A stretch of 64,000 nt of DNA from NCBI GenBank assembly GCA_934699595.1, contig CAKUWT010000001.1, positions 135,839-199,838 of the forward strand, given 5' to 3'. This DNA comes from an uncultured Patescibacteria group bacterium (GTDB taxonomy: Bacteria > Patescibacteriota > Minisyncoccia > Phycocordibacterales > UBA918). Positions 3,547 to 57,905 of this stretch are shown here, piece after piece. Both the position numbers and the translations under genes were made by a program. The notes under the pieces are model-generated. The model was given only the letters and a program-made list of their open reading frames with translations. It was not told the origin of the DNA and made no database searches. Within the stretch, counting starts at the first letter, position 1, and every line of letters starts with the position of its first letter.

Positions 3547-3649
3547 ATACTGAAGGGTCGCTTCGTGAGACGGCGGCAACAAAAATAGTGGGCGGAACCA
3601 AAGGTTCCGCCCACTATTTTCTCTCCACCCTCTTTTCTACACCAAAATA

Positions 3650-12216: not shown

Positions 12217-12288
12217 GGCCCTATCGTCTAACGGCTAGGACACATCCCTCTCACGGATGAAATCCGGGTTCGATTCCCGGTAGGGTCA
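12217..12288 (+). tRNA. tRNA-Glu (anticodon CUC)
   Basis: Cloverleaf by hand. The acceptor is GGCCCTA/TAGGGTC (one G-U). D stem GTCT/GGAC. The anticodon stem CATCC/GGATG carries the loop CT-CTC-AC. The T arm is CCGGG-TTCGATT-CCCGG and the discriminator is A. No CCA is encoded. Confidence 0.8.
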
Positions 12289-12630: not shown

Positions 12631-12663
12631 AAAAAAAGCCCCGGACACTTGCGTGCCCGGGAC
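12631..12663 (-). terminator. Terminator of the flotillin gene
   Basis: The hairpin CCCGG(A)CAC-ttgc-GTG(C)CCGGG has a poly-A on the plus strand, giving a poly-U on the minus-strand transcript. Confidence 0.45.
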
Positions 12664-12684
12664 GGGAGTCTCATGCGAGACAAG

Positions 12685-14055
12685 TTACTCGGTCTTGGCT
12701 TCCGGTGCGCCATCACCGCTCGGAGCGGCTTCGGTCACCTTGGCCGGAGCCGGGTTGGTCAGCTTGCCGACGATGGCTTGGCCAAGCGGGCTCTGCGCGA
12801 ACGCTTCGACCGCCGAAGCCAGATGGGTACCACCCTTGGAGGTGAAGAGATCCATGACGTTGGTCATGCCTTCGCCGGGCTTGCCCGTGTTGGCGATGAC
12901 CTTGACGTCGGCCTTCTGCAGCGCTTCGGCTTGCTTGCCGCCAACCACCACATAGCCCTTGATGCCTTCGATGGTCATCAGGTACTGTTGGTAGCCGACG
13001 TTGCCGCCGATTTCCTTCGCCAGGACGATCTGCGCCTCGACAGGAGCGAGTTGCATGGCCTTCTCGGCCGCTGCATTCGCCACGCCGACTGCTTCGATAC
13101 CCTGGGCACGCTTGCGCTCGGCTTCGAGCTGGCCATCGGCGATGATCACCGTGGTCTGCTTCTCTTGCTCGGCGGCCACGACCTGCTTGTCCTTCTCGAT
13201 TTCGGCCGTGCGCACTTCTTCGACGCGCTTGACCGCCATGTCGCGCTCCTTGGTCTCCTTCTCCTGCGTCAGAACTTCCTGGCGCGCGAGCTGGTTGGCG
13301 ATGCCGACAGCCTTGTCCTTCTCGGCAGTGCGCTCACCGACGGCCTGTTCGGCCTGCTGGCGCTGGATGTCGACTTCACGCTTGGCGGTGATTTCGGCCA
13401 TCTCGGCGGCCCGCATGTTCTCGGCAACGTCACGCCGGCTCTCCATCTCGATCTGCGAAGTCTTCTTCGCCATGATGTTGGAGATGACCTGGCTGCCACG
13501 ACCGTCACGGATGTCCATCAGTTCCATGGACTTGACCGGCTCGACACCCCACTGCTTGAGCTGTTCGACGACTTCAGCCGTGAAGGCTTCGCCGAACTTG
13601 GAACGCTCGAGCATGATGTTGTCGATCTTGTCGCCGGCGAGGACCTTGCGGACCGCGCCCTGGACGATCTGGTGCAGCTGTGCCTGGAGCTCGTCGATGC
13701 TGGCCACCCGCTGTGCGGCGAGTGCCGTGTCGGCGATGCGGAAGAACGCCGTGACGTCCACCATGAAGGGAACGCGATCGGCGTCGTAGGCTTCGTAGCC
13801 GTCGAGCGAGAGGTCGAAGTTGCTCACCGGCAGCTCGATGACCGTGACCCCGAACTTCGGAATCCAGCTGGGCCAGCGATAGTAGACGTTGCCGCCTTCG
13901 AGGCCGGTGCCGTAGGGCATCGTGGTGCGACCGCGCTGGACAATGTGCACCATGTTGGTGCTCACGACCTTTCGGTAGAGGATGGCGAGAATGATGGCAA
14001 AGACCACCAGTACGCTGATCAGGACGGACCCGATCAGAACAGGGATGTTGAACAT
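12685..14055 (-). CDS. Flotillin / SPFH (band 7) family protein with very high G+C
   Basis: There is an N-terminal TM helix, then the SPFH domain and a long EA-rich coiled-coil typical of flotillins (YqiK/FloT-like). I chose the start MFNIP at 14055 because GGAGAAG lies 6 nt upstream. Codons are strongly GC3-biased, unlike the rest of the window. Confidence 0.8.
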   Translation of the reverse strand: MFNIPVLIGSVLISVLVVFAIILAILYRKVVSTNMVHIVQRGRTTMPYGTGLEGGNVYYRWPSWIPKFGVTVIELPVSNFDLSLDGYEAYDADRVPFMVDVTAFFRIADTALAAQRVASIDELQAQLHQIVQGAVRKVLAGDKIDNIMLERSKFGEAFTAEVVEQLKQWGVEPVKSMELMDIRDGRGSQVISNIMAKKTSQIEMESRRDVAENMRAAEMAEITAKREVDIQRQQAEQAVGERTAEKDKAVGIANQLARQEVLTQEKETKERDMAVKRVEEVRTAEIEKDKQVVAAEQEKQTTVIIADGQLEAERKRAQGIEAVGVANAAAEKAMQLAPVEAQIVLAKEIGGNVGYQQYLMTIEGIKGYVVVGGKQAEALQKADVKVIANTGKPGEGMTNVMDLFTSKGGTHLASAVEAFAQSPLGQAIVGKLTNPAPAKVTEAAPSGDGAPEAKTE

Positions 14056-14738
14056 GTGCTTCTCCTGTGGAATTGGAGGGTATTCTCCACTTTCCACATT
14101 AACATACTATGACGTATCTGTCAACCCTACGTAATGGTTCAATACCTTCGCAACACCATAAGCTATAGGTTGCTCTATCTTGCCTACAGAGTAGCTAATA
14201 CAGGCAACGGGGCTTATACAGAAACGCCACCGAAGTAGCTCACACGAAACAACACCGAGCAGGCCACGCGAGCGGATGCGAGCGTGCCTATGCGAGGTGG
14301 TTGCACAGTGTGAGCGGACTCTCGATATACCACACGCGCTGTATACGGGAAGCGCGCCTCGCTTGACGCGAGGACGGAAAAAAGCGTAGTGGTAGGCTCT
14401 CAAGTGAGATGGAGACTATAACGAAGCTTTTTGGAGGACGAAGCGGCGACCCCAAACCAAAGAAATATCCTTTCAATTTTTTGTCGGCTCCTCCCCAGAC
14501 CCCTCCACCGAAAAAATGATTGTAAGGAAATTTCTTTGTTTTGGGTGCCGAGTGCAGCGAGGCAGCGAGGCGCGCCAAGCTCCAATGCGTACGCGGAAGT
14601 ATAAAGCCACCACGCGCTCGGCGCGTTGCAGGTTCACCGCTTCGCGGTGTAGTGAGTTAGAGCGCGATGCGCTAATACATCACAAAGTAACAAAACTGTA
14701 ATTTTACAATATAAGTCGACCAACTATACAGCATCAAA

Positions 14739-16483: not shown

Positions 16484-16518
16484 ATAAACCCCGGGCGGAG
16501 GCAAAGCCTCCGCCCGGG
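16484..16518. repeat. GC-rich palindromic hairpin element, copy 1
   Basis: The sequence is ATAAACCCCGGGCGGAGGCAAAGCCTCCGCCCGGG. The 28-bp core CCGGGCGGAGGCAAAGCCTCCGCCCGGG recurs exactly at 17176. Confidence 0.6.
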
Positions 16519-16620
16519 TCTGGCTGATTCAAACGATTGTTTACTGGTCTGGTCTATGTTATTCTCGAAAACAGTCCTGGTGCGATTCCAGCTCCGTTCC
16601 TTTTTGCCAAGGAGGCAGCC

Positions 16621-17082
16621 ATGTCGGACATCACCGTCTCATATAAACTAGAGATTATCAAAGATGCAGTGCCGTTCCACAACGCACAAATCACGAACCA
16701 AGAGATCTCTGGGCGGAAGACTTCCCGTTATCTGATCGTTAGCTTTATCGTCCCAGATCCATCCAGGCCTGCCCTCTTGGTGGTGGAAGGTCATGCAAGT
16801 CACCAGTTTGGCTTTCTCGTGTTCGACCGACACCTCAAGCAGCTGCCTGTCTCTGAGAAGCAATCATTTTGCTTGGGTGCCGGCGATGTACCCTACCTGT
16901 CACTAGAGGAGTTAAGGAGAAGATACCCCTGGATAAGAATACTGGACCAGGAACTCTGCTTCAACAATTTAACCAAGCAGTTCAAGGTCATGGGATTGTG
17001 GAGAGAAATAGTCTCTTCTGGCTATCCCTGGGTCCGCAAGCAACAGCTGATAGAGGAGTTGAAGAACATCATTCTTAGATAA
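16621..17082 (+). CDS. Hypothetical protein (153 aa) bracketed by the two palindromic repeat copies
   Basis: I chose the start MSDITV because AAGGAGG lies 5 nt upstream. Its GC is higher than its neighbours. I recognise no family. Confidence 0.5.
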   Translation: MSDITVSYKLEIIKDAVPFHNAQITNQEISGRKTSRYLIVSFIVPDPSRPALLVVEGHASHQFGFLVFDRHLKQLPVSEKQSFCLGAGDVPYLSLEELRRRYPWIRILDQELCFNNLTKQFKVMGLWREIVSSGYPWVRKQQLIEELKNIILR

Positions 17083-17175: not shown

Positions 17176-17209
17176 CCGGGCGGAGGCAAAGCCTCCGCCC
17201 GGGGTTTAT
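17176..17209. repeat. GC-rich palindromic hairpin element, copy 2
   Basis: The sequence is CCGGGCGGAGGCAAAGCCTCCGCCCGGGGTTTAT. Its right flank GGTTTAT is the reverse complement of the left flank ATAAACC of copy 1. Confidence 0.6.
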
Positions 17210-19657: not shown

Positions 19658-19912
19658 TTATTAATAAACTTCCTCCTTTTAGGAGTTAATTGTAGCAGTG
19701 TATTCACCCAAGGCTGATGTGGATAAAGCATCTCGATACAAAATTATTGCTCTGTAAAATCTCACCTTGTAAATACGCTTACTTAGCTACTTATTTCTGC
19801 CGGGCAAAATATTTTCTGGTTAAAAATGTAAACAGTGGCGGGGAGCAAAGCTCCCCGCCACTGTTTATTCCCTCCAACCTCTCCTACCCGCACCCCATCG
19901 AACTCGCTTTAG

Positions 19913-25123: not shown

Positions 25124-27532
25124 ATGTCATACGAAGAATTCCGCCGCCGCATTGATACCGCTCGTCAGATCCTGGTCGGCGCCGTACCATCACCAGCTGG
25201 GCAGATCGACCAGATCACCTATGCGCTGATGTACAAATTTATGAACGACATAGACGACAAGTCTGCCTCGCTCGGTGGCAAGCGGAGCTATTTCACTGGC
25301 GAATACGCTCAGTACAACTGGCACAACCTAATGTCGGCCAGTCTCGGTGCACAGGAGCGTCTTGAATTATATCGTCAAGCCATCCAGACCATGACTAAAA
25401 ACCCTGCCTTGCCGCCGATGTTTCGTGAGATTTATCAAAATGCCTTTTTGCCGTTTAATTCTGCCAATGTCTTGACGCTATTCCTCAAAGAGATCGACAA
25501 ATTCAACCACGGCGAAAGTGATGACATCGGCGACGCCTACGAGTACCTGTTATCAATCACTGGCGCTCAGGGCGACGTCGGTCAGTTCCGTACACCGCGT
25601 CACATCATCAAATTTATCGTCGAGGTCGTAAATCCGAGAAAAACCGATACCGTACTCGATCCAGCCTGTGGCACCGCTGGCTTTTTGATCTCCGCTTATA
25701 GTCATGTCCGCGCCCAGCACGACGGTGTCGACGCCGAAGGCAAGCCTAACGACGAAAAGCGCCTATCTGCCGACGAACTCGACAAAATCCACCACAACTA
25801 CCGTGGCTTCGACATCGACCCTACTATGGTGCGCACTGCGAAGGTCAATCTATATCTGCATGGTTTTAAAACTCCAGAAATCATCAACCACGACTCCTTA
25901 AGTAGTGAAGATTACTGGAACGAACGTTACGACGTCATCCTGGCTAATCCGCCATTTATGACACCAAAAGGCGGCATCCAGCCGCACAAAAAGTTTAGTA
26001 TTTCTGCCAACCGCGCCGAGGTGCTGTTTGTCGACTATATCGCCAGCCACCTCAAGCCAACCGGCCGCGCCGGTATCGTCGTACCAGAGGGTATTATCTT
26101 TCAGAGCGGCAAAGCGTACAAAGAACTGCGAAAAAACCTAGTCGAAAATTACTTGTATGCTGTCGTCAGCCTACCTGCTGGCGTATTCCAACCTTACAGT
26201 GGTGTCAAAACCAGCGTGTTATTACTTGACAAAGAACTCGCTAAGCAGCGCGACAAGATACTATTCATAAAAATTGAAAAAGACGGCTTTAGTCTTGGCG
26301 CTCAACGAGCAAAGTTGTGTGAAGATAGCGGCAATCACCCAAATCTTTGCCCTCAACACAGCGACCTACCACATGCACTTCATGATTTAGCTGCGTTCAA
26401 GGCCGGCCAAGAATTTGCAAGTGAGCTTGCGCACAGTGTGCTACGTAGCAAAATTGCGGAAAGTGGTGACTACAACTTGAGTGGCGATCGATACAAAATC
26501 GTTACAAATAGTAATCTTGACGTCGAATTTATTGAATTGGGTGAAGTAGCCGAGGTGTATCAGCCAAAGACAATTACCTCTAAGGAGGTAAAAGACGAAG
26601 GAGAGTATAAGGTCTTTGGAGCGAATGGCGTAATCGGATACTATAGTCAGTACAATCACGAGCATGCAGAAGTAGCTGTGACTTGCCGGGGGGCAACCTG
26701 CGGAACAGTGAACTATACTGAACCGAAGAGCTGGATTACTGGAAACGCTATGGTTATTTCACCAAAGAATAGCAATAATCTAAACAAGAGATTCTTATAC
26801 TATATTTTGCAGAACGACTCAATCAAAAACGTCATTAGTGGCTCTGCCCAGCCGCAAATTACTCGAAGTTCACTAGCTCCATTCAAAATCCCACTCCCTC
26901 CAATCGAAATCCAGCGCGAAATCGTCGCCGAACTCGACGGCTACCAAAAAATCATCGACGCCGCCCAAACTATCGTCCAAACCTACAAACCCACCATCAA
27001 GATAAATCCGGAATGGGACATGAGGCTGATTGGGGAAATTGCCGAAGTACGTAAAGGAAGCGCAGTTACGAAGGCGCAGATTAATCCAGGTGGCTCGGTA
27101 CCTGTTGTTGCAGGCGGACAAAAGCCTGCCTATTACCACAATGTATCCAACCGTGAGCCAGACGTAATCACTATCAGCGCGTCGGGAGCATACGCAGGCT
27201 TTGTGAATTACTGGACGGAACCCATCTTCGCTTCAGACTGCTCCACGATTCAAGCAATAGACGACAAAAGAGCTCTGAACAGGTACATTTTTGAGTCACT
27301 CAAGAGCCTTCAGGGCGATATATACAAACTCCAGATGGGTGGAGGACAACCTCACGTCTACCCAAAGGATATTGTAAAAATAAGCATCCCACTCCCACCA
27401 ATCGAAATCCAACGCGAAATCGTCGCCGAACTTGAAGCCGAACAAAAACTCATCGATGCCAACAAAAAACTCATCGAAATCTACCAACAAAAAATCAAAT
27501 CCAAAATCGCCGAGGTCTGGGGAGAATCATAA
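25124..27532 (+). CDS. Fused type I methyltransferase and specificity subunit (HsdM-HsdS single polypeptide)
   Basis: Residues about 1-460 form the HsdM_N helical domain plus the N6-adenine MTase (LDPACGTAGFL and NPPF motifs). Residues about 465-802 form two short target-recognition domains, each ending in the HsdS conserved repeat IPLPPIEIQREIVAEL. Confidence 0.8.
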   Translation: MSYEEFRRRIDTARQILVGAVPSPAGQIDQITYALMYKFMNDIDDKSASLGGKRSYFTGEYAQYNWHNLMSASLGAQERLELYRQAIQTMTKNPALPPMFREIYQNAFLPFNSANVLTLFLKEIDKFNHGESDDIGDAYEYLLSITGAQGDVGQFRTPRHIIKFIVEVVNPRKTDTVLDPACGTAGFLISAYSHVRAQHDGVDAEGKPNDEKRLSADELDKIHHNYRGFDIDPTMVRTAKVNLYLHGFKTPEIINHDSLSSEDYWNERYDVILANPPFMTPKGGIQPHKKFSISANRAEVLFVDYIASHLKPTGRAGIVVPEGIIFQSGKAYKELRKNLVENYLYAVVSLPAGVFQPYSGVKTSVLLLDKELAKQRDKILFIKIEKDGFSLGAQRAKLCEDSGNHPNLCPQHSDLPHALHDLAAFKAGQEFASELAHSVLRSKIAESGDYNLSGDRYKIVTNSNLDVEFIELGEVAEVYQPKTITSKEVKDEGEYKVFGANGVIGYYSQYNHEHAEVAVTCRGATCGTVNYTEPKSWITGNAMVISPKNSNNLNKRFLYYILQNDSIKNVISGSAQPQITRSSLAPFKIPLPPIEIQREIVAELDGYQKIIDAAQTIVQTYKPTIKINPEWDMRLIGEIAEVRKGSAVTKAQINPGGSVPVVAGGQKPAYYHNVSNREPDVITISASGAYAGFVNYWTEPIFASDCSTIQAIDDKRALNRYIFESLKSLQGDIYKLQMGGGQPHVYPKDIVKISIPLPPIEIQREIVAELEAEQKLIDANKKLIEIYQQKIKSKIAEVWGES
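26885..26940 (+). repeat. HsdS conserved-region direct repeat, copy 1
   Basis: About 56 bp, roughly 90% identical to 27384..27440 (ATCCCACTCCCTCCAATCGAAATCCAGCGCGAAATCGTCGCCGAACTCGACGG). Confidence 0.6.
27384..27440 (+). repeat. HsdS conserved-region direct repeat, copy 2
   Basis: Direct repeat of 26885..26940 inside the same ORF. Confidence 0.6.
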
Positions 27533-28392: not shown

Positions 28393-29664
28393 TCAGCCAA
28401 CCTCTCCGCCTGCCACCATGCCTGTGGTCCAGCAGAGCTGGAGGGAGTAGCCGCCTGAAGGGCGGCGAATATTAAGCAAGTCTCCAGTCACTAAAAGATT
28501 CTGATACTGCTTCACCCGCATGGTGCGCATATCTACTGCCTCTAAATCTAATCCGCCGTCGGTAATTACCGCTCGTTTAAATCCCATCAAAGACAAAATT
28601 GTCAAGGGTAAGGCTTTCAAAGTACTACCAGTCTCCCGCCTCTCTGCTACTGTAATACTATGTACCTTCTTGTCTCCGTCCACCCCAGAGAAGAGTGGCA
28701 GCATGGCGGCACCCGCGCCTAATGGGCCAAACTCATTAAAGATGTTTTTGAGATTTTTGTTTTTATGGACGGCAAAGACGGCTTGTAATTTTTGATCAAG
28801 AGTATGGTCGTCAAGCTCGGGATAGATATCTATCGTAGCTGTCACTTCTCCCTCCTCTAGCAAATCTTTTACGCGGGTAGCGGCGTTTAAAATTAGTGGT
28901 CCGGAAATGCCAAAATGCGTGCAGAGTATGTCCCCTCGCAAGGTAAAGCGACGCTTTTGGTCAACAAAAAAACTAATCCGCACATCTTTCAATGTGGTAC
29001 CAGCTAGTTTTTTCACCCACTCCTCCTTTACCTGAAGCGGTACTACCGAGGGTGAGGGCTCGGAAACAGGCAAACCTAGGTCTCGCAGCCAAGTAAAGCC
29101 GTCACCTGTTGAGCCAGTCTCTGGATGAGACAGGCCGCCTGTCGCCAATAAATAATTCCTAGCGGTAAGAGTCTCTTTGCCTACCTGCACACCCGTCACC
29201 TGCTTATCGGTATGAGTAATTTTGGTCACCGCTGTATTGAGGCGCACCTCTACTCCACCAGCTTTTAGGTAATCATGCAGCACTAGAAACACATCAGCAG
29301 CACGCTCACTAACCGGAAATACTCGCTGCCGGTCTTCAGTCTTGAGCGGTAAACCACGCTCGGTAAACCACTTCATCGTCGCCCGGTTACCAAACTTAGT
29401 AAAAGCTGAAAAAAGGTACTTCCCCGCTGCACCATAATGAGCGAGGAGTTGATGAATATCGGTCTCAGCGTTGGTAATATTACATCGTCCGCCGCCAGTG
29501 ATTTTGAGCTTCTGACCTAGTTCGGCGTTTTTCTCCAGGAGGAGAACGCGTGCGCCGCCTGCGGCGGCGCACGCGGCAGCCATCATCCCCGAAGCGCCAC
29601 CACCCACCACGATCAAGTAGTACGGCTCACCCCCCTTCGTACCCTTTATCCCCGCTTTTTGCAT
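28393..29664 (-). CDS. NAD(P)/FAD-dependent oxidoreductase, HI0933/BaiN-like flavoprotein
   Basis: The N-terminal Rossmann motif is VVGGGASGMMAA. The LLEKN...GGGRCN motif is typical of the HI0933 family. Confidence 0.75.
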   Translation of the reverse strand: MQKAGIKGTKGGEPYYLIVVGGGASGMMAAACAAAGGARVLLLEKNAELGQKLKITGGGRCNITNAETDIHQLLAHYGAAGKYLFSAFTKFGNRATMKWFTERGLPLKTEDRQRVFPVSERAADVFLVLHDYLKAGGVEVRLNTAVTKITHTDKQVTGVQVGKETLTARNYLLATGGLSHPETGSTGDGFTWLRDLGLPVSEPSPSVVPLQVKEEWVKKLAGTTLKDVRISFFVDQKRRFTLRGDILCTHFGISGPLILNAATRVKDLLEEGEVTATIDIYPELDDHTLDQKLQAVFAVHKNKNLKNIFNEFGPLGAGAAMLPLFSGVDGDKKVHSITVAERRETGSTLKALPLTILSLMGFKRAVITDGGLDLEAVDMRTMRVKQYQNLLVTGDLLNIRRPSGGYSLQLCWTTGMVAGGEVG

Positions 29665-35191: not shown

Positions 35192-35312
35192 AACAGCCTA
35201 ACGACAGGGGGCTGCGAGTGAAATAGCTTTGCTATTTCACTCGCAGTCCGTCACTATCGCACTAACATCACTCACCCTTCTTCCACAAATCTTTTTAGTA
35301 AATTAAATATAT

Positions 35313-35341
35313 AAAACCGCGGTCGCCCGCGGTTTTATATT
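35313..35341. terminator. Bidirectional intrinsic terminator
   Basis: aaaaCCGCGG-tcgcc-CGCGGtttta. Confidence 0.55.
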
Positions 35342-35781
35342 CAGAAGATTAATGCTGTTATCTAGCGAGTCGCCGTGATCAGCCTTTCGATAATGCTGAA
35401 CCTTTTGACAAGATTTGGGGAGATACCCTACTCTCTCTTTTCCCTAGTTAAACTAAACTCTTCCCGACTTACTTTCAGCAACCCATTAGCTACTAGTTAC
35501 TAAAATTAAGGTTCACCGTTTAGTCCGGGAGTCCTATCGAGACTCCTAAGCATCGACATTTGTATTTGGCAAGTAATCATTGGGGTTTCCAATGGCTACC
35601 TGAAAAATGACGAGTCCGTAGACCCGTTAACTTATATTAACAACCGCCAACCGGGCCGCCAACCGTTCATCTGGGGACTACCGGAAGACCTGCCAGAGTA
35701 GACCGATGTGCCGGTCTACAGGACGCTACAGCACTACAAACCTCACAAACTTTTTAAACTACTTAATTAGATACTCTCCTG

Positions 35782-35809
35782 TTGACAACTAAATATTTTC
35801 ATGTATAAT
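35782..35809 (+). promoter_or_regulatory. Near-consensus sigma70-type promoter (TTGACA-N16-TATAAT)
   Basis: Exact -35 and -10 hexamers with a 16-nt spacer. A GGAGAGGAGGAAGG SD and an ATG follow within about 25 nt. Confidence 0.5.
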
Positions 35810-35832
35810 AGCGGGAGAGGAGGAAGGAAATT

Positions 35833-35952
35833 ATGAGAAAGATTCCGATTTTAGCCTGGTTTATCAGGCATCTCCAGGCCTTCGAAGAAAGCCTGGATGC
35901 TGAGCAGCGAGCCGCACTCGCTGCCGAACTGCTCAAACATCCAGAGTGGTGA
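35833..35952 (+). CDS. Stand-alone 39-aa ORF (MRKIPILAWFIRHLQAFEESLDAEQRAALAAELLKHPEW)
   Basis: It is not in the supplied ORF track (shorter than 60 aa). I found it from the promoter, SD and ATG arrangement, and from the tandem hairpins that follow. Confidence 0.45.
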   Translation: MRKIPILAWFIRHLQAFEESLDAEQRAALAAELLKHPEW

Positions 35953-36009
35953 CATCAGGAGATGTCACCACTCTCCCACCGGTCGCTTGGTTTTACCCTT
36001 GCGACCGGT
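35948..36009. terminator. Tandem hairpins between the convergent small ORF and the FNR-like gene
   Basis: GGTGACATC-agga-GATGTCACC overlaps the stop codon. It is followed by ACCGGTCGC-N14-GCGACCGGT and then ttcc. Confidence 0.45.
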
Positions 36010-36034
36010 TTCCATAGATAGAGTCGTGGTAATT

Positions 36035-36757
36035 TTAGTACCCAGTAAACTCTTCAGTGCGAATATTATCCTCACTGATAGCGAGTTCCCCCACCAGCAT
36101 CTGACGTATGGCTTTTACCATTCCTTCCGGCCCCGAGAGATAATAAATTGGCGCCTGAACGTTGCCAACATATTTTTTCAGAATATCTGCATTCATCCGA
36201 CCTTGCTCGGCACCGTCACTTTCTTCTTCTCCATAAACTGATACGTAGTGGAAATTACCATGTCTTGTTGCCAATTCCTGAAAATCACTTTCAAAAGGAG
36301 CATCCATGCTTGTACGGTTGGCGTGAAAAAGAGTCATCTGATGACCAGATCCATCATATAGAGCTTGCTTCACGATACTTCTAATTGGAGTCACACCGAT
36401 ACCACCAATAATAAACACTGCTGGGGTGGAAGAGGTTTTATGTAGAGTAAAATCGCCGTACGGTCCATCGAGTTTTACCTCTAGTCCCTCTTCCCCTAGC
36501 AACATACTTTTTAACACTCTTTTAAAAGCTGTATCACGAAGACGAGTGGCGAAGCCCAGCTCATCCTCATAGGGGGCGGTAATAAAAGAAAACCCCCGAG
36601 TATTACCTTCAGCGTCAGTCTCTGGAGGGTTTGTAAAAGTATAATCAGCAAACTGTCCCGCTCGAAACTCAAAGCTGTCCGGCTTGTCGAAATAGTAGGC
36701 CATAGTTCCATTGGCCACACTTTCTTTTCGTTTGATCTTAATATCGTAAATAGACAT
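36035..36757 (-). CDS. FAD/NAD(P)-binding oxidoreductase, ferredoxin-NADP reductase-like
   Basis: RxFS-type FAD motif (RGFSF), GGIGVTP NAD(P)-binding motif, and a C-terminal EEF. Confidence 0.7.
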   Translation of the reverse strand: MSIYDIKIKRKESVANGTMAYYFDKPDSFEFRAGQFADYTFTNPPETDAEGNTRGFSFITAPYEDELGFATRLRDTAFKRVLKSMLLGEEGLEVKLDGPYGDFTLHKTSSTPAVFIIGGIGVTPIRSIVKQALYDGSGHQMTLFHANRTSMDAPFESDFQELATRHGNFHYVSVYGEEESDGAEQGRMNADILKKYVGNVQAPIYYLSGPEGMVKAIRQMLVGELAISEDNIRTEEFTGY

Positions 36758-38083: not shown

Positions 38084-39274
38084 CTACTCCGGGAAAAGAC
38101 CACAGAACCAATTCCCGCAAGTAGCATCTGCGTCGAGCTGGAGCCAGTACATCAGTAGAATCATCAATAGCACCAGACCAATCCCCAACAGAATATTCAG
38201 TGGTAAGTCCTTATAGAAACCTCGAATAATCATTGTACATAATCCAGCAAAAATTAGAACAGTAATGACTGAATAGGCGATACGTAACGGCAAAGTCTCA
38301 TTGGCAAAGAACCAGCGCTGCCAACTAGTTGTGCGCTGTCCTGGACTCACTACCAACAACTCTCCTCCTGGTGATAACGCCTGCTCACCACCAGCAAATG
38401 AAGAGTCATCAACAAATTCCGTACCTTGACTAGTTTCGTCAGCGACATTGGCTACCGTTCCCTGCACTTCACTATTTTTAGACACAGCACCTCCGACAGC
38501 TGTGATTTCAGCAGCTTGCAACGGGTCGGTTGGAATATTTTCTACTTGTCTCGCTTGGGAGTTGGGTGATTTATTAACTACAGTATTTGTTTCTGCTCCA
38601 GCAACAGTTCCCGGCACAATGATAGCCGGATCTTTCTCTGACAATACGTCTGGCTTAGGATCCTCATAAGCTTTAGTGGCGACAGTCGGAGCTGGTGCAG
38701 GCTGTCTCGGAGTACCAAACAGCTGTACCACAAAAACAGTTTCTTGGCCCTTGTAGTAGCCTATAGCAGTAGCTATTCCCACCTCGGTATAATTGGGGTT
38801 AAGAATATTCTCTCGGTGTCCGGGTGAGTTCATCCACCCTTGATTAACATCTTTTGATTCGGAAAAGTTCACCGCCAAGTTCTCCCCAGCATGCTTGTAA
38901 TCATACCCTACTGCCTCAAACCAATACCATGGTGTCACCCCTTCTGGACTCGTATGAGCAAAATAGCCCTTACTCGCCATGTCATTAGCTTTCATCTGCG
39001 CTGCTCTCTCAAGCAAGGGATTGGTCTTTAGGCTGCTTACCTGATAGCTACCCCGGTCCTCATTTGCCAAACTAACTAAAACTGCTGGCAAAACTTCCGC
39101 CAGAAAGCCTTTATTATTTTTAAGGTATTCAGTTCCCAGTAATGATATTGAGAAAACTAGAAGAATAACAAGGAATAAACTAGCGATACTGAGAGCAGTA
39201 AAAACTCCCGGTGCTTGGGTATTGTCTTTATACGGAGAAAGATAACAGCGTACTTGATACCAAAAGTTTTTCAT
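38084..39274 (-). CDS. CAP (SCP/PR-1, YkwD-like) domain protein with N- and C-terminal TM segments
   Basis: GHYTQVVW-like CAP motifs: GYFAHTSPEG, GENLA and GHRENIL. Confidence 0.7.
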   Translation of the reverse strand: MKNFWYQVRCYLSPYKDNTQAPGVFTALSIASLFLVILLVFSISLLGTEYLKNNKGFLAEVLPAVLVSLANEDRGSYQVSSLKTNPLLERAAQMKANDMASKGYFAHTSPEGVTPWYWFEAVGYDYKHAGENLAVNFSESKDVNQGWMNSPGHRENILNPNYTEVGIATAIGYYKGQETVFVVQLFGTPRQPAPAPTVATKAYEDPKPDVLSEKDPAIIVPGTVAGAETNTVVNKSPNSQARQVENIPTDPLQAAEITAVGGAVSKNSEVQGTVANVADETSQGTEFVDDSSFAGGEQALSPGGELLVVSPGQRTTSWQRWFFANETLPLRIAYSVITVLIFAGLCTMIIRGFYKDLPLNILLGIGLVLLMILLMYWLQLDADATCGNWFCGLFPE

Positions 39275-39410
39275 GTCTTTATATTATAGGCTACTTTTTG
39301 ATAATTCCAGAGCTGGTGGGGATAGTAGGCGGCAGCTTTGCTGCCGCCTACTATCCCCACCAAGATAATTCTGAGCAGTCCTCCAACCCTAAACTCCTTC
39401 CCTTTACTCA

Positions 39411-43743: not shown

Positions 43744-44139
43744 ATGGGAGAGATTATCAAGTTTCCAATATCCAAACAAACTACTAGGACGCCTGCTCAG
43801 AAGTCGGCAAGCTCACTGTCTAAGGAGATGGTGATTGCTCGGCTTCAAGCCCGGTTCATGCTCGAAAAGATGCGGACGGCCCGAGAGACACTTCGGCAGG
43901 ACCTGGTCAGCCTTATCGAGAACTCTGGTAATGCTCGAGATCTTGAGGCGGAGACTGAGCTGATCCAAGACTTCAATAATATGATCAGCCAGCTAGATGC
44001 CTCCCTCAGCCACCTATGTGCCCAAGGCAGTTTTACCTTGGAAGAAATTGACTGTTCAATTTCTGAGCACTACTACCTCGTAGGGGTTCGAGAGCCGGGA
44101 CATCCTCCACGCCCCTACACCGAGAAGTGGCATGGGTAA
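43744..44139 (+). CDS. Hypothetical protein (131 aa)
   Basis: GGGAGGAG SD and its own terminator. Confidence 0.5.
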   Translation: MGEIIKFPISKQTTRTPAQKSASSLSKEMVIARLQARFMLEKMRTARETLRQDLVSLIENSGNARDLEAETELIQDFNNMISQLDASLSHLCAQGSFTLEEIDCSISEHYYLVGVREPGHPPRPYTEKWHG

Positions 44140-49575: not shown

Positions 49576-49785
49576 ATTTTTACAAATTTAATTAGGATGA
49601 ATAACTACACCATTATAACATATTTACTGCTTACTCATTTTTCACCACCACTTTACAAAACTAGTCCTCCACTGCCAGACAAACTTCGATACTTTTTAAT
49701 GCCTGCTGTGATATGCACAAAAAAGGAAGATAAAAAACCCCGCAGTTTAGCTAAACTGCGGGGATGGATTTTGTTGAAAGAGGGT

Positions 49786-50334
49786 TTACAACAGCGGGAG
49801 TTTTTGGAACTCCTTATTGCCGTCACCAAGGCGACCGGTGCCGATCTTCATAACCTCTATCTGAAAACAGCTGTCAGAGGTCATACCGAAAAAATCGACA
49901 TCATCAGGTCCGAGCAGTACCCGAACTGGTCCCGAAACCCGCAGACGAGACACCCCGTGGACAGCTCCTGTACGCCAGCCAATGTGCCAGTAGGTCACTC
50001 CACCGTTGGCGGGAGCAATAACCACATACCGCTGCCAGCCGCCTCGCGTAAAGGTGAGGTGTCGTCTGAGGCCCGAAAGTCGATAATGACTGATGGCGTG
50101 AGTATCACCAGACAATCGCACCATCATTCCTTGACTGAGGTACTCAGTCTCACTGGGCTGGAGGTGGTGATTATTCCACAAATGAGTCCGTTGAGGACTT
50201 TCATTCAGGAAATTCCAGTTGAGGGTCAGCAAACCTCGCAGCACCATGACTCCCTTCATCACCGGCCACATAAGCAGGTCGGCTATTCGACCGACCAGGC
50301 CCTGCGGACGAACCCGCAGCATTGAAACAAGCAT
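49786..50334 (-). CDS. Hypothetical protein (182 aa)
   Basis: The SD AGGAGGAAAAG sits directly before ATG 50334 and a palindromic hairpin follows the stop. The overlapping plus-strand ORF 49597..50325 is low-complexity with no signals. Confidence 0.5.
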   Translation of the reverse strand: MLVSMLRVRPQGLVGRIADLLMWPVMKGVMVLRGLLTLNWNFLNESPQRTHLWNNHHLQPSETEYLSQGMMVRLSGDTHAISHYRLSGLRRHLTFTRGGWQRYVVIAPANGGVTYWHIGWRTGAVHGVSRLRVSGPVRVLLGPDDVDFFGMTSDSCFQIEVMKIGTGRLGDGNKEFQKLPLL

Positions 50335-52569: not shown

Positions 52570-54291
52570 TTAACGGTCAGGAGGAATAGAGTAATAATTG
52601 ATCAAAAATTTAGTTAAGTCCATGAAAGGCTCGGTCAAAGTCTCGGAAGCGTATTGTACCCCCTTCGGCTCTACAGTATACAAGAAAATAATGTATTTGG
52701 GGTCGTAAGCGGGAAAATAGCCGAAAAAAGAATGGAAGTAACGATCGTCATAATACCCACCACCTGGTTTAGCAATCTGCGCAGTACCAGTTTTAGCAGC
52801 GATAGTGTGATTAGGCAAAGCCACACTTCCACCTCGTAAGGCTTTATCCACTACCGTCACCAGCATCCGTGAAATGGTCTCACTGGTTTCATTACTAAAG
52901 ACCTGTTGTCCTTGCGGGTACAAAATGTCTTTGCTTGTACCATCTTCATACTCGATCCGTGAGACTAAGTGCGGTGTCACCAAGTAGCCACCATTCCCTA
53001 GAGCGGCTAATGCTCTGGTGGTGGCAATCGGCGTAGTAGCAATCCCTTGACCGAAAGAGGCGGTGGCATATTCCACTTCCCGCGGCGACTCCAAGTTACT
53101 CACCAATCCCCTGGCTTCACTTGGTAAATCAATACCTGTTTCGCTACCAATTTTCATCCGAGTAAAGTAATCACGAAAACGCTCATGTCCCATTAGCTTA
53201 GTAATATGAGCGACTCCAGTATTCAGAGACTGGTTAAGTACTTCCTGCATATCCACTGTGCCGCGGCCACGGCCGTCATAATTACCAATGGTAAAAGTAT
53301 TGAGAGTCAGAGTACCAGCATCATAGTAAGTAGAGGTTGGTGTCACCACTCCACTATCTAATCCCGCCGCCATCGTCAACGCCTTAATGGTGGAGCCCAT
53401 CTCATAGACGTTTTCTACTAACGGATTTTGAAAGGCCTCAATACTAGCTTGGCTGCGGTCGTTATTATTGTAGGTTGGCACCGCATCAAGCGCCACAATC
53501 TCTCCTGTTTTTGGATCCATAATAATCCCGCCCGTGGATTTGCTCTGGTAATACTCATTAGTTTCTAACAGGACCCGATCTAACATTCTTTGCACCGTGG
53601 GCTCAATAGTGGTGACCACACTGCCACGCTTTTCTTCTTCAGCTCCAGCATTAGTGACTCCAAAATTATTAAAAATCTCCGCAAATAAATTGACACTGGG
53701 GCCGCTCTTTTCCCGACTCAGCACACTATCGTAATAACGTTCAAGACCGTACTTTCCTTTTAACCCGTCTTCTGGATTACTAGTGTGCCCTACAAAACCG
53801 ATTACTTTCGCCCCCACACTTTCGCCTGGATAATAACGCCACTGATTTTTCGAAATAATTACACCATCAACTTTTGCTGAATCAATTTTGTCAGCAACCG
53901 CTTCTGATAAACGCTCTTCTAACACGACATAAGCCCGCTCTTTTTGCGACGCTATATTTTTAAAGGTGATTTCATCAAGCTTAGGCAAAACTGCTTCTGA
54001 CACTACTGCCCAAGCAGCGTCTGCATCGGTCATCATCCGGGGGTTAATAGCCAACAAGTAACCGTAATTTACTGTGGCCGCCGAGACCAATTCGCCATTT
54101 TTGGCTTGCATAAAAATATTCCCTCTCGCATACAGGTCGTTACTTTTTTTAATGTATTGACCCTCTGTTATCTCGGCAAACTCTGCATGTTGAACAATTT
54201 GAATATAATATAAATGCACTAGTAATAAAATACTTAGCAAGAGCACAGCCCCTGTTAGCAGTCTGATACGAGTAATGGCACCTTTTTGCAT
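52570..54291 (-). CDS. ftsI: Penicillin-binding protein 2B / FtsI-like D,D-transpeptidase
   Basis: N-terminal TM, dimerisation domain, and transpeptidase motifs STIK (GSTIKAL), SxN and KTGT (AKTGTA). Confidence 0.85.
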   Translation of the reverse strand: MQKGAITRIRLLTGAVLLLSILLLVHLYYIQIVQHAEFAEITEGQYIKKSNDLYARGNIFMQAKNGELVSAATVNYGYLLAINPRMMTDADAAWAVVSEAVLPKLDEITFKNIASQKERAYVVLEERLSEAVADKIDSAKVDGVIISKNQWRYYPGESVGAKVIGFVGHTSNPEDGLKGKYGLERYYDSVLSREKSGPSVNLFAEIFNNFGVTNAGAEEEKRGSVVTTIEPTVQRMLDRVLLETNEYYQSKSTGGIIMDPKTGEIVALDAVPTYNNNDRSQASIEAFQNPLVENVYEMGSTIKALTMAAGLDSGVVTPTSTYYDAGTLTLNTFTIGNYDGRGRGTVDMQEVLNQSLNTGVAHITKLMGHERFRDYFTRMKIGSETGIDLPSEARGLVSNLESPREVEYATASFGQGIATTPIATTRALAALGNGGYLVTPHLVSRIEYEDGTSKDILYPQGQQVFSNETSETISRMLVTVVDKALRGGSVALPNHTIAAKTGTAQIAKPGGGYYDDRYFHSFFGYFPAYDPKYIIFLYTVEPKGVQYASETLTEPFMDLTKFLINYYSIPPDR

Positions 54292-56291: not shown

Positions 56292-57782
56292 CTATTCTAT
56301 TGACTCAATATTCTCATCCTTGCCTTTCTCCACCCGCGGCTTCATCAACGGAAAGAGCTGGGTCTCACGGAGAGGTAGGCCAGCTAAAAAAGCAAACAAA
56401 CGTTCACCAAAGCCAAAACCGCAAGTTGGTGGCATACCGTATTCCAACATCTCCACAAACTCCCAGTCGGGCATCATCGCCTCCTCGTCTCCAGCTTCCA
56501 GCAACTGCTGCTGTATTTTGAAGCGTTCTCGTTGGTCGTCAGGGTCGTTCAACTCACTGTAGCCTCGTCCCACCTCGCTACCAGCGATAATCGGTTGAAA
56601 CATCTCCGCCTTTTCCGTGCCAGGAATTTTCTTAGCCAATGGTGAGACAATCAGAGGATGATTAATGAGAAAAGCTGGGCCAGCAATACTCTTCCGACAA
56701 TACTTCCATAAAGTATCCATCAAACGCTCACGATTATCACCATCATACTTCACCCCTAATTCCTCTAGTTTGGCTCGCATCTCATCTTCGCTCGCGGTCA
56801 GGACGTTAATACCCGTCTGCTTCTCTACCTCGTCCACGTAATCAATCTCATACCACTCGTCGGCTAAGTCAAAATCAAGCCCGCGAATCGAAAACTTAGT
56901 AGTACCAAAGACCTCCTTTGCAATGCGACGATACATGGCCTGAATCAGTTTCATACCATCACGATAATCGGCGTACGCCCAGTAGAATTCCATATTGGTG
57001 AACTCTTGCAGGTGCTCAGGGCTAGTGCCTTCGTTGCGGTAAGCTTTACCAATTTCAAAAGTCTTAGGATAACCTGCTGCCATCAAGCGCTTCTGCCACA
57101 ACTCGCCGATACTGATGCGCATGTATACCGGTAGATCATAATCATTATGATGAGTAGCAAAAGGACGGGCCTCAGCACCACCGGTCGTGACCTCAATGGT
57201 TGGCGTCTCCACCTCCAAAAAGCCGTGCTCTACCAAGAAAGCTCGAGTGACCTGCCAGAATTTTTCTTTTTTATAAAACAATTCTCGGAGCTCGTCATTG
57301 AGGAGTAAGTCTAAGTAACGCTTCCGGTAACGCTCATCCTCATCTTTAATACCAAAATGCTCAGTAGGAATTTGCTGCAAGGTTTTAGTGAGGACTTGCC
57401 AAGCGGTTGCCTGCACCGCTTTGGTTTCCCGCTTAGTGGTAAAAGCGGTGCCGGTGACTTCAATAAAATCGCCGGGGTCGATATTGTCAGTAAAAAGATT
57501 AAACGACTCGACACCGAGATGCTCCACCGTCAACATTGCCTGGACTTTTTCCGTCCCGTCGAACAAATCTGCAAAAGCCAAAGCGCCGTGGCGACGAATG
57601 GACATTACTCGTCCAGCGATAGTCAAACTAGTGGCCTCAGCCTCCAGAGTAGCAAAATTAGTTAATAAATCAGCGATAGTAGTATCACGATTGGTGGTAG
57701 CCGCGTATGGATCCATACCCGCGGCTTGTAAACGTTCTCGCTTGGCGCGGTGCTCATTTTTTAGCTCTTCTAAGGTAGACAT
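56292..57782 (-). CDS. lysS: Lysine--tRNA ligase (class II)
   Basis: N-terminal OB anticodon-binding domain and class II motifs (FEIGKAYRNEG, GxGxGxER). Confidence 0.9.
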   Translation of the reverse strand: MSTLEELKNEHRAKRERLQAAGMDPYAATTNRDTTIADLLTNFATLEAEATSLTIAGRVMSIRRHGALAFADLFDGTEKVQAMLTVEHLGVESFNLFTDNIDPGDFIEVTGTAFTTKRETKAVQATAWQVLTKTLQQIPTEHFGIKDEDERYRKRYLDLLLNDELRELFYKKEKFWQVTRAFLVEHGFLEVETPTIEVTTGGAEARPFATHHNDYDLPVYMRISIGELWQKRLMAAGYPKTFEIGKAYRNEGTSPEHLQEFTNMEFYWAYADYRDGMKLIQAMYRRIAKEVFGTTKFSIRGLDFDLADEWYEIDYVDEVEKQTGINVLTASEDEMRAKLEELGVKYDGDNRERLMDTLWKYCRKSIAGPAFLINHPLIVSPLAKKIPGTEKAEMFQPIIAGSEVGRGYSELNDPDDQRERFKIQQQLLEAGDEEAMMPDWEFVEMLEYGMPPTCGFGFGERLFAFLAGLPLRETQLFPLMKPRVEKGKDENIESIE

Positions 57783-57840
57783 AATGCTCTTAGTATAAAC
57801 GACGAATCATTTCTGGCAATACGGGGCTTAGGATGGCGGG

Positions 57841-57888
57841 AGGTAAAAAGCGGGGGCGGCCACTTGTGGCCGCCCCCGCTTTTTACCT
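57841..57888 (-). terminator. Terminator of greA
   Basis: About a 20-bp GC-rich stem: AGCGGGGGCGGCCAC-ttg-TGGCCGCCCCCGCT. Confidence 0.55.
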
Positions 57889-57905
57889 CTTCGCATCAAC
57901 CAGAC

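Follow-up and report, generated by a model that had tools for sequence, protein, structure and literature searches.

A candidate stand-alone 39-codon gene with a consensus promoter and gene-end hairpins in an uncultured Patescibacteria group bacterium

This study concerns a small open reading frame (ORF) of 39 codons in a 64,000-nucleotide stretch of contig CAKUWT010000001.1 (positions 135,839 to 199,838 of the forward strand), from the assembly GCA_934699595.1 of an uncultured Patescibacteria group bacterium. We refer to the whole stretch as the window, to the small ORF as the micro-ORF, and to the micro-ORF together with its signals as the micro-gene. A preliminary description of the locus had reported a promoter, a purine tract containing a Shine-Dalgarno (SD) sequence, the 39-codon ORF and its stop codon, and all of these are present where it placed them. 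As it had also proposed, the micro-gene is a stand-alone, monocistronic unit, and the next gene, on the minus strand at 36035-36757, is convergent with it. The micro-ORF overlaps no other plausible gene and has previously been called as a gene on one metagenome contig in ENA (ERZ27286916, k141_158958, 202.7 kb). It is a new orphan in the known class of stand-alone small ORFs. The features of the locus are as follows:

35750-35781, plus strand: AT-rich stretch CTTTTTAAACTACTTAATTAGATACTCTCCTG, upstream of the -35 hexamer, by direct reading
35782-35787, plus strand: -35 hexamer TTGACA, read from the sequence and from a promoter scan
35804-35809, plus strand: -10 hexamer TATAAT, 16 nt from the -35 hexamer; a G+C-rich discriminator, AGCGGGA, comes next
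35814-35827, plus strand: purine tract GGAGAGGAGGAAGG, with the SD core GGAGG at 35819-35823, 9 nt ahead of the ATG at 35833
35833-35952, plus strand: 39-codon ORF with stop codon TGA at 35950-35952, translation MRKIPILAWFIRHLQAFEESLDAEQRAALAAELLKHPEW
35854-35869, 35873-35897 and 35904-35924, plus strand: three consecutive intra-ORF hairpins, from folding
35943-35974, strand-neutral: hairpin 1, AGAGTGGTGACATC-AGGA-GATGTCACCACTCT, a perfect 14-bp stem with a 4-nt loop, folding z = -5.7
35978-36009, strand-neutral: hairpin 2, a perfect 9-bp stem with a 14-nt loop, folding z = -6.5
36035-36757, minus strand: FNR-like gene (NAD_binding_1, 240 aa), convergent with the micro-gene

The promoter TTGACA-N16-TATAAT at 35782-35809 is the sole 12/12 match to the sigma-70 consensus in the window, with both hexamers complete and a spacing that lies within the 16-18 nt of sigma-70-type promoters. 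By chance, 0.06 perfect promoters would be expected per window, and at least one was found in 6/100 shuffles; the loci that we collected from relatives (1.43 Mb, both strands) hold 2 perfect promoters, the equivalent of ~0.18 per window. Judging from the usual distance of ~7 nt, transcription is predicted to start near 35816, and the AT-rich stretch at 35750-35781 may possibly be an UP-element-like enhancer. A similar arrangement, GTGACA...TACACT, is found upstream of the tRNA-Glu gene at 12217, which is the only gene that ARAGORN detected in the window.

The SD core of the micro-gene is unpaired in the centroid fold, and the ATG at 35833 is the only possible start codon, with in-frame stops at 35806-35811. 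Searching both strands of the window for GGAGG-N4-10-ATG yielded 11 sites, 8/11 of which are followed by at least 30 open codons. The joint chance of such a site occurring ~25 nt 3' of a single perfect promoter is of the order of 1e-4, by our own arithmetic from the promoter and GGAGG-ATG counts. SD sequences are rare in this genome, and a search of positions -20 to -4 for an SD core as short as a 4-mer is positive for just 4/53 ordinary genes. Five of the 10 other GGAGG-spacer-ATG sites coincide with, or lie close to, the first start codon of an ORF of 127-182 codons:

37609, 43744, 11998 and 16621, and 50334 on the minus strand: GGAGG-led starts of long ORFs, from the GGAGG-spacer-ATG search

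Based on these five sites, GGAGG appears to be a working start signal for a minority of genes in this genome, which makes translation of the micro-ORF more likely, and the micro-ORF has at its start codon a ribosome-binding signal of a kind that the genome employs. The GGAGG-led ORFs are mostly atypical in codon usage, and the one that was scanned, at 43744, has no Pfam match; the use of an SD sequence in the micro-ORF hints at acquired or young DNA. The preliminary description had ranked the expression signals of the micro-gene among the strongest in the stretch, and we concur, given the sole 12/12 promoter in the window, the correctly spaced SD, the single start codon, and an end hairpin of its own. 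These signals and their rarity are direct observations, as are two features described below, a codon bias specific to the frame and a peptide without a transmembrane segment, and the anatomy of the micro-gene is real and non-random.

In several other genes the ATG is preceded at 6-9 nt by a -10 box of the form TAnnnT, for example 28393-29664, 38084-39274, 52570-54291, and 56292-57782, all on the minus strand, and this placement suggests that their mRNAs are leaderless. We found nothing specific in the literature on SD or leaderless usage in Saccharibacteria. The minus-strand ORF at 49786-50334 has GGAGG-N5-ATG at its first start codon; it overlaps almost fully with a plus-strand ORF at 49597-50325, and both have poor codon-usage scores. 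A mostly SD-less genome in which the SD is kept on a few atypical genes may help gene calling in the lineage more generally.

A log-odds model of codon usage, for which 33 long genes of the window served as the training set, gives the micro-ORF +7.6 bits and all five other frames negative scores; among true in-frame windows of 39 codons, this score is at the 19th percentile. When the background is stop-free, the micro-ORF has +4.0 bits, which ranks it 22/575 among small ORFs, and per codon it scores 0.10, compared with 0.05 for a genuine 66-aa DUF1328 gene in the window. Its GC content by codon position (0.64/0.38/0.56) follows the same pattern as that of real genes (0.54/0.39/0.45). The micro-ORF therefore has host-like, frame-specific codon usage, as evidence of weak to moderate strength.

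The predicted peptide has a mass of 4.6 kDa, an isoelectric point of 6.0 and a grand average of hydropathy (GRAVY) of -0.13. It has no transmembrane segment, the best 19-residue Kyte-Doolittle window being 0.48, and the hydrophobic run IPILAWFI has just 8 residues; the earlier suggestion that a membrane type I toxin is unlikely is borne out by the lack of such a segment. AlphaFold2, run without an alignment, predicts two helices, at residues 5-20 and 23-35, with a mean confidence score (pLDDT) of 86.5. An amphipathic helix had been proposed as well, and this holds modestly for helix 1, whose hydrophobic moment of 0.42 is matched by 7% of shuffles, and fails for helix 2, which does no better than shuffles. 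The predicted tryptic peptides of the micro-protein are IPILAWFIR, HLQAFEESLDAEQR, and AALAAELLK(HPEW). We considered a Sec signal peptide (MRK, IPILAWFI, LQA/F) and by eye judged it unlikely, as the hydrophobic region has no more than the minimum length, and R and H come next. An alternative code, or read-through of the TGA, would add just 22 codons up to a TAG at 36019 and leave the picture unchanged.

We place about even confidence in the reading that this is a real, strongly expressed, lineage-specific gene for a soluble two-helix micro-protein of an uncultured Saccharibacteria (TM7)-like bacterium, and the intrinsic evidence mildly favours translation of the micro-ORF. Transcription, translation, and folding are predicted to proceed as follows. 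The consensus sigma-70-type promoter would fire at ~35816 and give a transcript of ~160-195 nt, with a 17-nt leader bearing the accessible GGAGG. Ribosomes would begin at the ATG at 35833 and produce a soluble, slightly acidic peptide of 39 residues, shaped like a helix-turn-helix hairpin. The 14-bp hairpin over the stop codon, possibly together with hairpin 2, would set and stabilise the 3' end, and the three intra-ORF hairpins would add stability to the short mRNA. By analogy with other stand-alone helical-hairpin micro-proteins of bacteria, we speculate that the peptide binds a larger partner and has no enzymatic or membrane activity. More specific roles had been suggested, namely those of an anti-sigma-like peptide, a signalling peptide, or a toxin/antitoxin-type protein, and these find no footing in our searches, which returned no Pfam, NCBIfam, PHROG, or PADLOC family, and there is no partner gene nearby.

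A number of observations weigh against this reading, and they are given in this and the next paragraphs together with the alternatives on which they bear. Several small ORFs that lie antisense to real genes have codon-usage scores equal to that of the micro-ORF, so the codon-usage evidence is supportive, not decisive. An antisense control ORF of 45 aa also gives a helical AlphaFold model, with a pLDDT of 71.5, which makes the fold prediction weak evidence. Further, the peptide is without relatives in every collection that we searched. In a word-indexed search of 5.8 billion 90% clusters, for which the query was padded to 40 aa, and in a full HMMER scan of 1.84 billion 50% representatives, the peptide matched only itself. 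Back-translated patterns had zero matches in GTDB genomes, JGI metagenomes, and IMG/VR, and phage and plasmid records gave no match at either the protein (tblastn) or the DNA level. Among 61 loci of relatives, searched by tblastn, blastn, nhmmer, and tblastx, there was no peptide, DNA, or six-frame similarity. With no homologue anywhere, selection on the peptide cannot be demonstrated.

Databases of families and structures gave the same result. Pfam and NCBIfam held 0 families at E <= 10, PHROGs had no significant match (best E = 0.045), PADLOC had 0, the best hit among PDB sequences was at E = 0.96, and Foldseek found 0 matches among PDB folds. As far as these searches can tell, the locus is an orphan at every level.

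The flanking genes place this result in context. Exact copies of the FNR-like gene and of the thymidine kinase (TK) gene on the other side are found on 3-4 contigs, with an identical FNR protein on 4, and the next-best matches of the two proteins are 65-66% identical, mostly from metagenome-assembled genomes (MAGs) of Candidatus Saccharibacteria/Saccharimonadales. Our synteny sample consisted of 48 loci with relatives of the FNR-like gene, 11 with relatives of TK, and the contigs of the closest TK homologue; the best identity in this sample was 63-66%. No gene order is shared with the relatives that were fetched: the gene after TK is dnaX or one for an acetyltransferase, and different genes surround the FNR homologues. 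The relatives are thus too distant, and too lacking in synteny, for an alignment, a Ka/Ks analysis, or a covariation analysis. The preliminary description had named absence of the region from relatives as grounds for giving up the idea. Formally that is what we see, as peptide and DNA are found nowhere else; the absence is uninformative, because the closest genomes are ~65% identical in the flanking proteins and are non-syntenic.

Turning to the 3' end of the micro-gene, hairpin 1 had been assigned a 9-bp stem, and this has to be corrected to a perfect 14-bp stem with a 4-nt loop. The AGGAG said to lie in its loop does so in part: AGGA is the loop, and the final G is the first base of the 3' arm. 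Hairpin 2, with its 9-bp stem and 14-nt loop at 35978-36009, is as described. Hairpin 1 overlaps the end of the coding sequence, stop codon included, and probably marks the 3' end of the micro-gene or serves as its terminator, while hairpin 2 lies 25 nt past the stop of the convergent FNR-like gene and is probably the end hairpin of that gene or common to both. The two have the G+C-rich stem-loop of an intrinsic terminator and lack its U-tract. On the plus strand the bases after hairpin 1 are CCCACC and those after hairpin 2 are TTCCATAG, and on the minus strand, where there is no U-tract either, GGATGT and GGGAGA follow the hairpins. A terminator scan of the window listed neither of them. Given that they have no T-tract, unlike many other hairpins in the window, how efficiently they terminate is uncertain, and transcription may read on antisense to the FNR-like gene.

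Nearly every 3' intergenic region of the window has perfect hairpins, with stems of 9-23 bp (29/35 are intergenic, and often they are paired). Examples are found at 3582-3620, 19829-19867, 39314-39362, and 57840-57889, and many have A/T tracts within the stem in the style of bidirectional terminators. As gene-end hairpins are near-universal here, hairpins 1 and 2 belong to an ordinary gene-end class, and hairpin 1 resembles a normal gene end, which is among the points that mildly favour translation. None of the five palindromes at the micro-gene has another copy within the window, which argues against repetitive extragenic palindromic (REP) or bacterial interspersed mosaic (BIME) elements, miniature inverted-repeat transposable elements (MITEs), and insertion sequence (IS) ends, and we rejected these readings.

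The strength of folding across the locus raises the alternative that the product is a stable non-coding RNA of ~160-195 nt with five hairpins, or a cis-antisense RNA to the 3' end of the FNR-like mRNA, the ORF being incidental or the RNA dual-function. We regard this as doubtful, although several observations speak for it. The region 35816-36020 (205 nt), which covers the whole transcript, folds with z = -7.95. For the micro-ORF alone, z is -3.2 on the plus and -4.2 on the minus strand, while 85 control coding windows have a mean z of -0.37 (sd 1.1) and 2.4% of them reach -3, so that the body of the micro-ORF is more structured than 97.6% of coding windows, as would be the case for a structural RNA. 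The 16-bp spacer of the promoter, its G+C-rich discriminator, and the AT-rich region upstream appear to resemble those of stable-RNA promoters. Transcription through the two hairpins, neither of which has a U-tract, could conceivably yield an antisense RNA to the FNR-like gene, and conservation of the peptide was not evidenced in the cluster and HMMER searches. On the other hand, neither the gathering score nor a cutoff of E <= 10 brought up a family from Rfam 15, searched with lax filters, beyond a weak best match of 16 bits (E = 0.91), for which the gathering score is 40. The end hairpins are perfect stems of the gene-end kind, without the internal loops and bulges that are typical of functional RNA motifs, and no homologue was found in the loci of relatives by nhmmer or blastn, and hence there is no covariation support. 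The ideally spaced GGAGG, the only ATG, and 39 open codons with codon bias would all have to be coincidence. Transfer-messenger RNA (tmRNA), 6S RNA, signal recognition particle (SRP) RNA, and RNase P RNA were considered as well and discarded, with no Rfam family at the gathering score.

The genomic surroundings bear on a different alternative. The neighbours of the micro-gene are cellular (thymidine kinase, the FNR-like oxidoreductase, and a DUF488 protein), and the micro-gene sits in an 843-bp gene-less unique gap (35192-36034) of an otherwise compact genome, which also counts among the observations unfavourable to a functional gene, as the gap could be decaying acquired DNA. The part of the gap next to TK has two strong hairpins:

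35212-35246: hairpin after TK
35309-35340: second hairpin after TK, resembling a bidirectional terminator

Beyond these lies a spacer of ~440 nt (35350-35780) that is devoid of ORFs and of RNA structure (z about 0) and resembles nothing else that we searched. We looked for a pseudogene in this upstream spacer and rejected it, since a six-frame Pfam search, tblastn, and tblastx were all empty.

In such a setting the micro-gene could be a non-functional relic, the leftover 5' end of a recently acquired or decayed gene or of a mobile-element fragment, perhaps expressed and under no selection. We think this unlikely. It would account for the unusual length of the gap and its featureless spacer, for the GC content of the micro-ORF (~53%, vs ~45% for the genome), and for the peptide being a total orphan; the SD-led ORFs of the window, mostly without Pfam match and with atypical codons, are consistent with a foreign origin, and the adjacent FNR-like gene has a patchy distribution, resembling horizontal transfer, across Saccharibacteria and Proteobacteria. 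However, a 12/12 promoter, an intact SD and ATG, and two perfect hairpins should erode fast without selection, and the stop codon falls neatly within a terminator-type hairpin, a position that is not random. There is no remnant of a longer reading frame past the stop of the micro-ORF, no phage, plasmid, or IS similarity, and no flanking repeat around the micro-gene within the window.

The FNR-like oxidoreductase itself is 58-65% identical to proteins from Saccharimonadales MAGs and from contigs assigned to Burkholderiales, Rhodocyclaceae, and Rudaea, and its matches include plasmid pU120 of Aromatoleum buckelii. This distribution suggests either that the gene has moved horizontally between Saccharibacteria and Proteobacteria or that contigs were mis-binned.

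Within the micro-ORF and facing its start region is a promoter-like site on the minus strand (35876..35848, TGGAGA-17-TAAAAT, 9/12), and ~215 nt downstream of it is a terminator-like hairpin with a T-run, also on the minus strand (35627..35610). Together these sites could specify an antisense RNA, with the qualification that 9/12 promoter matches occur at chance frequency (24 found vs 18.9 expected). They bear on a type I toxin-antitoxin-like module, in which an antisense RNA would control a structured mRNA for a small toxic peptide. The small size of the ORF and the strong structure of its mRNA fit such a module, as do the weak promoter-like and terminator-like sites. Nevertheless, we consider it highly improbable: the peptide has no transmembrane segment, as its Kyte-Doolittle and GRAVY values indicate, the SD is unpaired in the centroid fold and so is not sequestered, the promoter-like site is of a quality found by chance, and Pfam, NCBIfam, and PADLOC gave no match.

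A few observations elsewhere in the window are recorded here. The region 12649-14112 is an island of 57% GC in a genome of 45% GC and corresponds to an SPFH/Band 7 gene at 12685-14097 on the minus strand, whose antisense frame is fully open too (487 aa). It contains a 33-nt motif three times at a spacing of 126-132 nt, and the island may have been horizontally acquired. A 28-nt hairpin, CCGGGCGGAGGCAAAGCCTCCGCCCGGG, occurs twice, at 16484-16518 and 17176-17209, 685 nt apart; the copies flank an ORF at 16537-17082 as a 34-nt inverted repeat, there is a diverged third copy at 3588-3615, and the pair may have arisen by duplication of a terminator or form a small cassette. A 113-nt direct repeat at 26888-27000 and 27386-27498 (80% identity, 498 nt apart) lies within an 802-aa N6_Mtase/Eco57I/Methylase_S gene at 25124-27532, and probably represents the duplicated target-recognition domains of a type IIG/I-like restriction-modification enzyme.

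Proteins of fewer than 50 aa are systematically missed by annotation, and almost nothing is known of them in bacteria of the Candidate Phyla Radiation (CPR), whose reduced genomes leave little room for junk. If the micro-gene is expressed, it would illustrate how genes are born in a streamlined genome, and it would be a candidate for a regulator or a host-interaction factor specific to the lineage. A bolder form of the micro-protein reading, which we find quite improbable, is that the peptide is the founding member of a new and very young micro-protein family, possibly born de novo, that is driven by the strongest promoter of the region, and that its transcript is perhaps dual-function, the five-hairpin RNA also acting in cis against the FNR-like mRNA. 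If true, the locus would join the few documented genes that have emerged recently and are highly expressed in the reduced genomes of the CPR. As a single unconserved locus, the micro-gene is a flagged candidate and not a discovery.

Among known systems, the type I toxins (hok, fst, tisB, ldr, ibs) resemble the micro-gene in having a short ORF on a highly structured, independently transcribed mRNA. Unlike them, the micro-gene encodes no hydrophobic transmembrane helix, has no convincing antisense RNA gene, and does not sequester its SD. Phage morons are likewise self-contained units of strong promoter, ORF, and hairpin between unrelated genes, whereas the micro-gene has cellular neighbours and no prophage context, its best PHROG match is not significant (E = 0.045), and searches of phage DNA and protein were empty. 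Small regulatory RNAs, encoded in trans or in cis, that have Rho-independent-like hairpins at the 3' end share its length of ~160-195 nt, its strong promoter, its several stem-loops, and its place between convergent genes, and differ from it in that the micro-gene has no Rfam match and no U-tract, and does have a well-formed translation start and a codon-biased ORF. Sda of B. subtilis is a helical hairpin of 46 aa that inhibits the kinase KinA and is conserved across Bacillus. The micro-protein has no sequence kinship to Sda or to any Pfam/NCBIfam family, and no homologues. In its architecture, however, the micro-gene is like those of Sda-type micro-proteins (<50 aa): it is monocistronic, it has a sigma-A/sigma-70-type promoter and an SD, and its product of ~40 aa is predicted to be a soluble two-helix hairpin.

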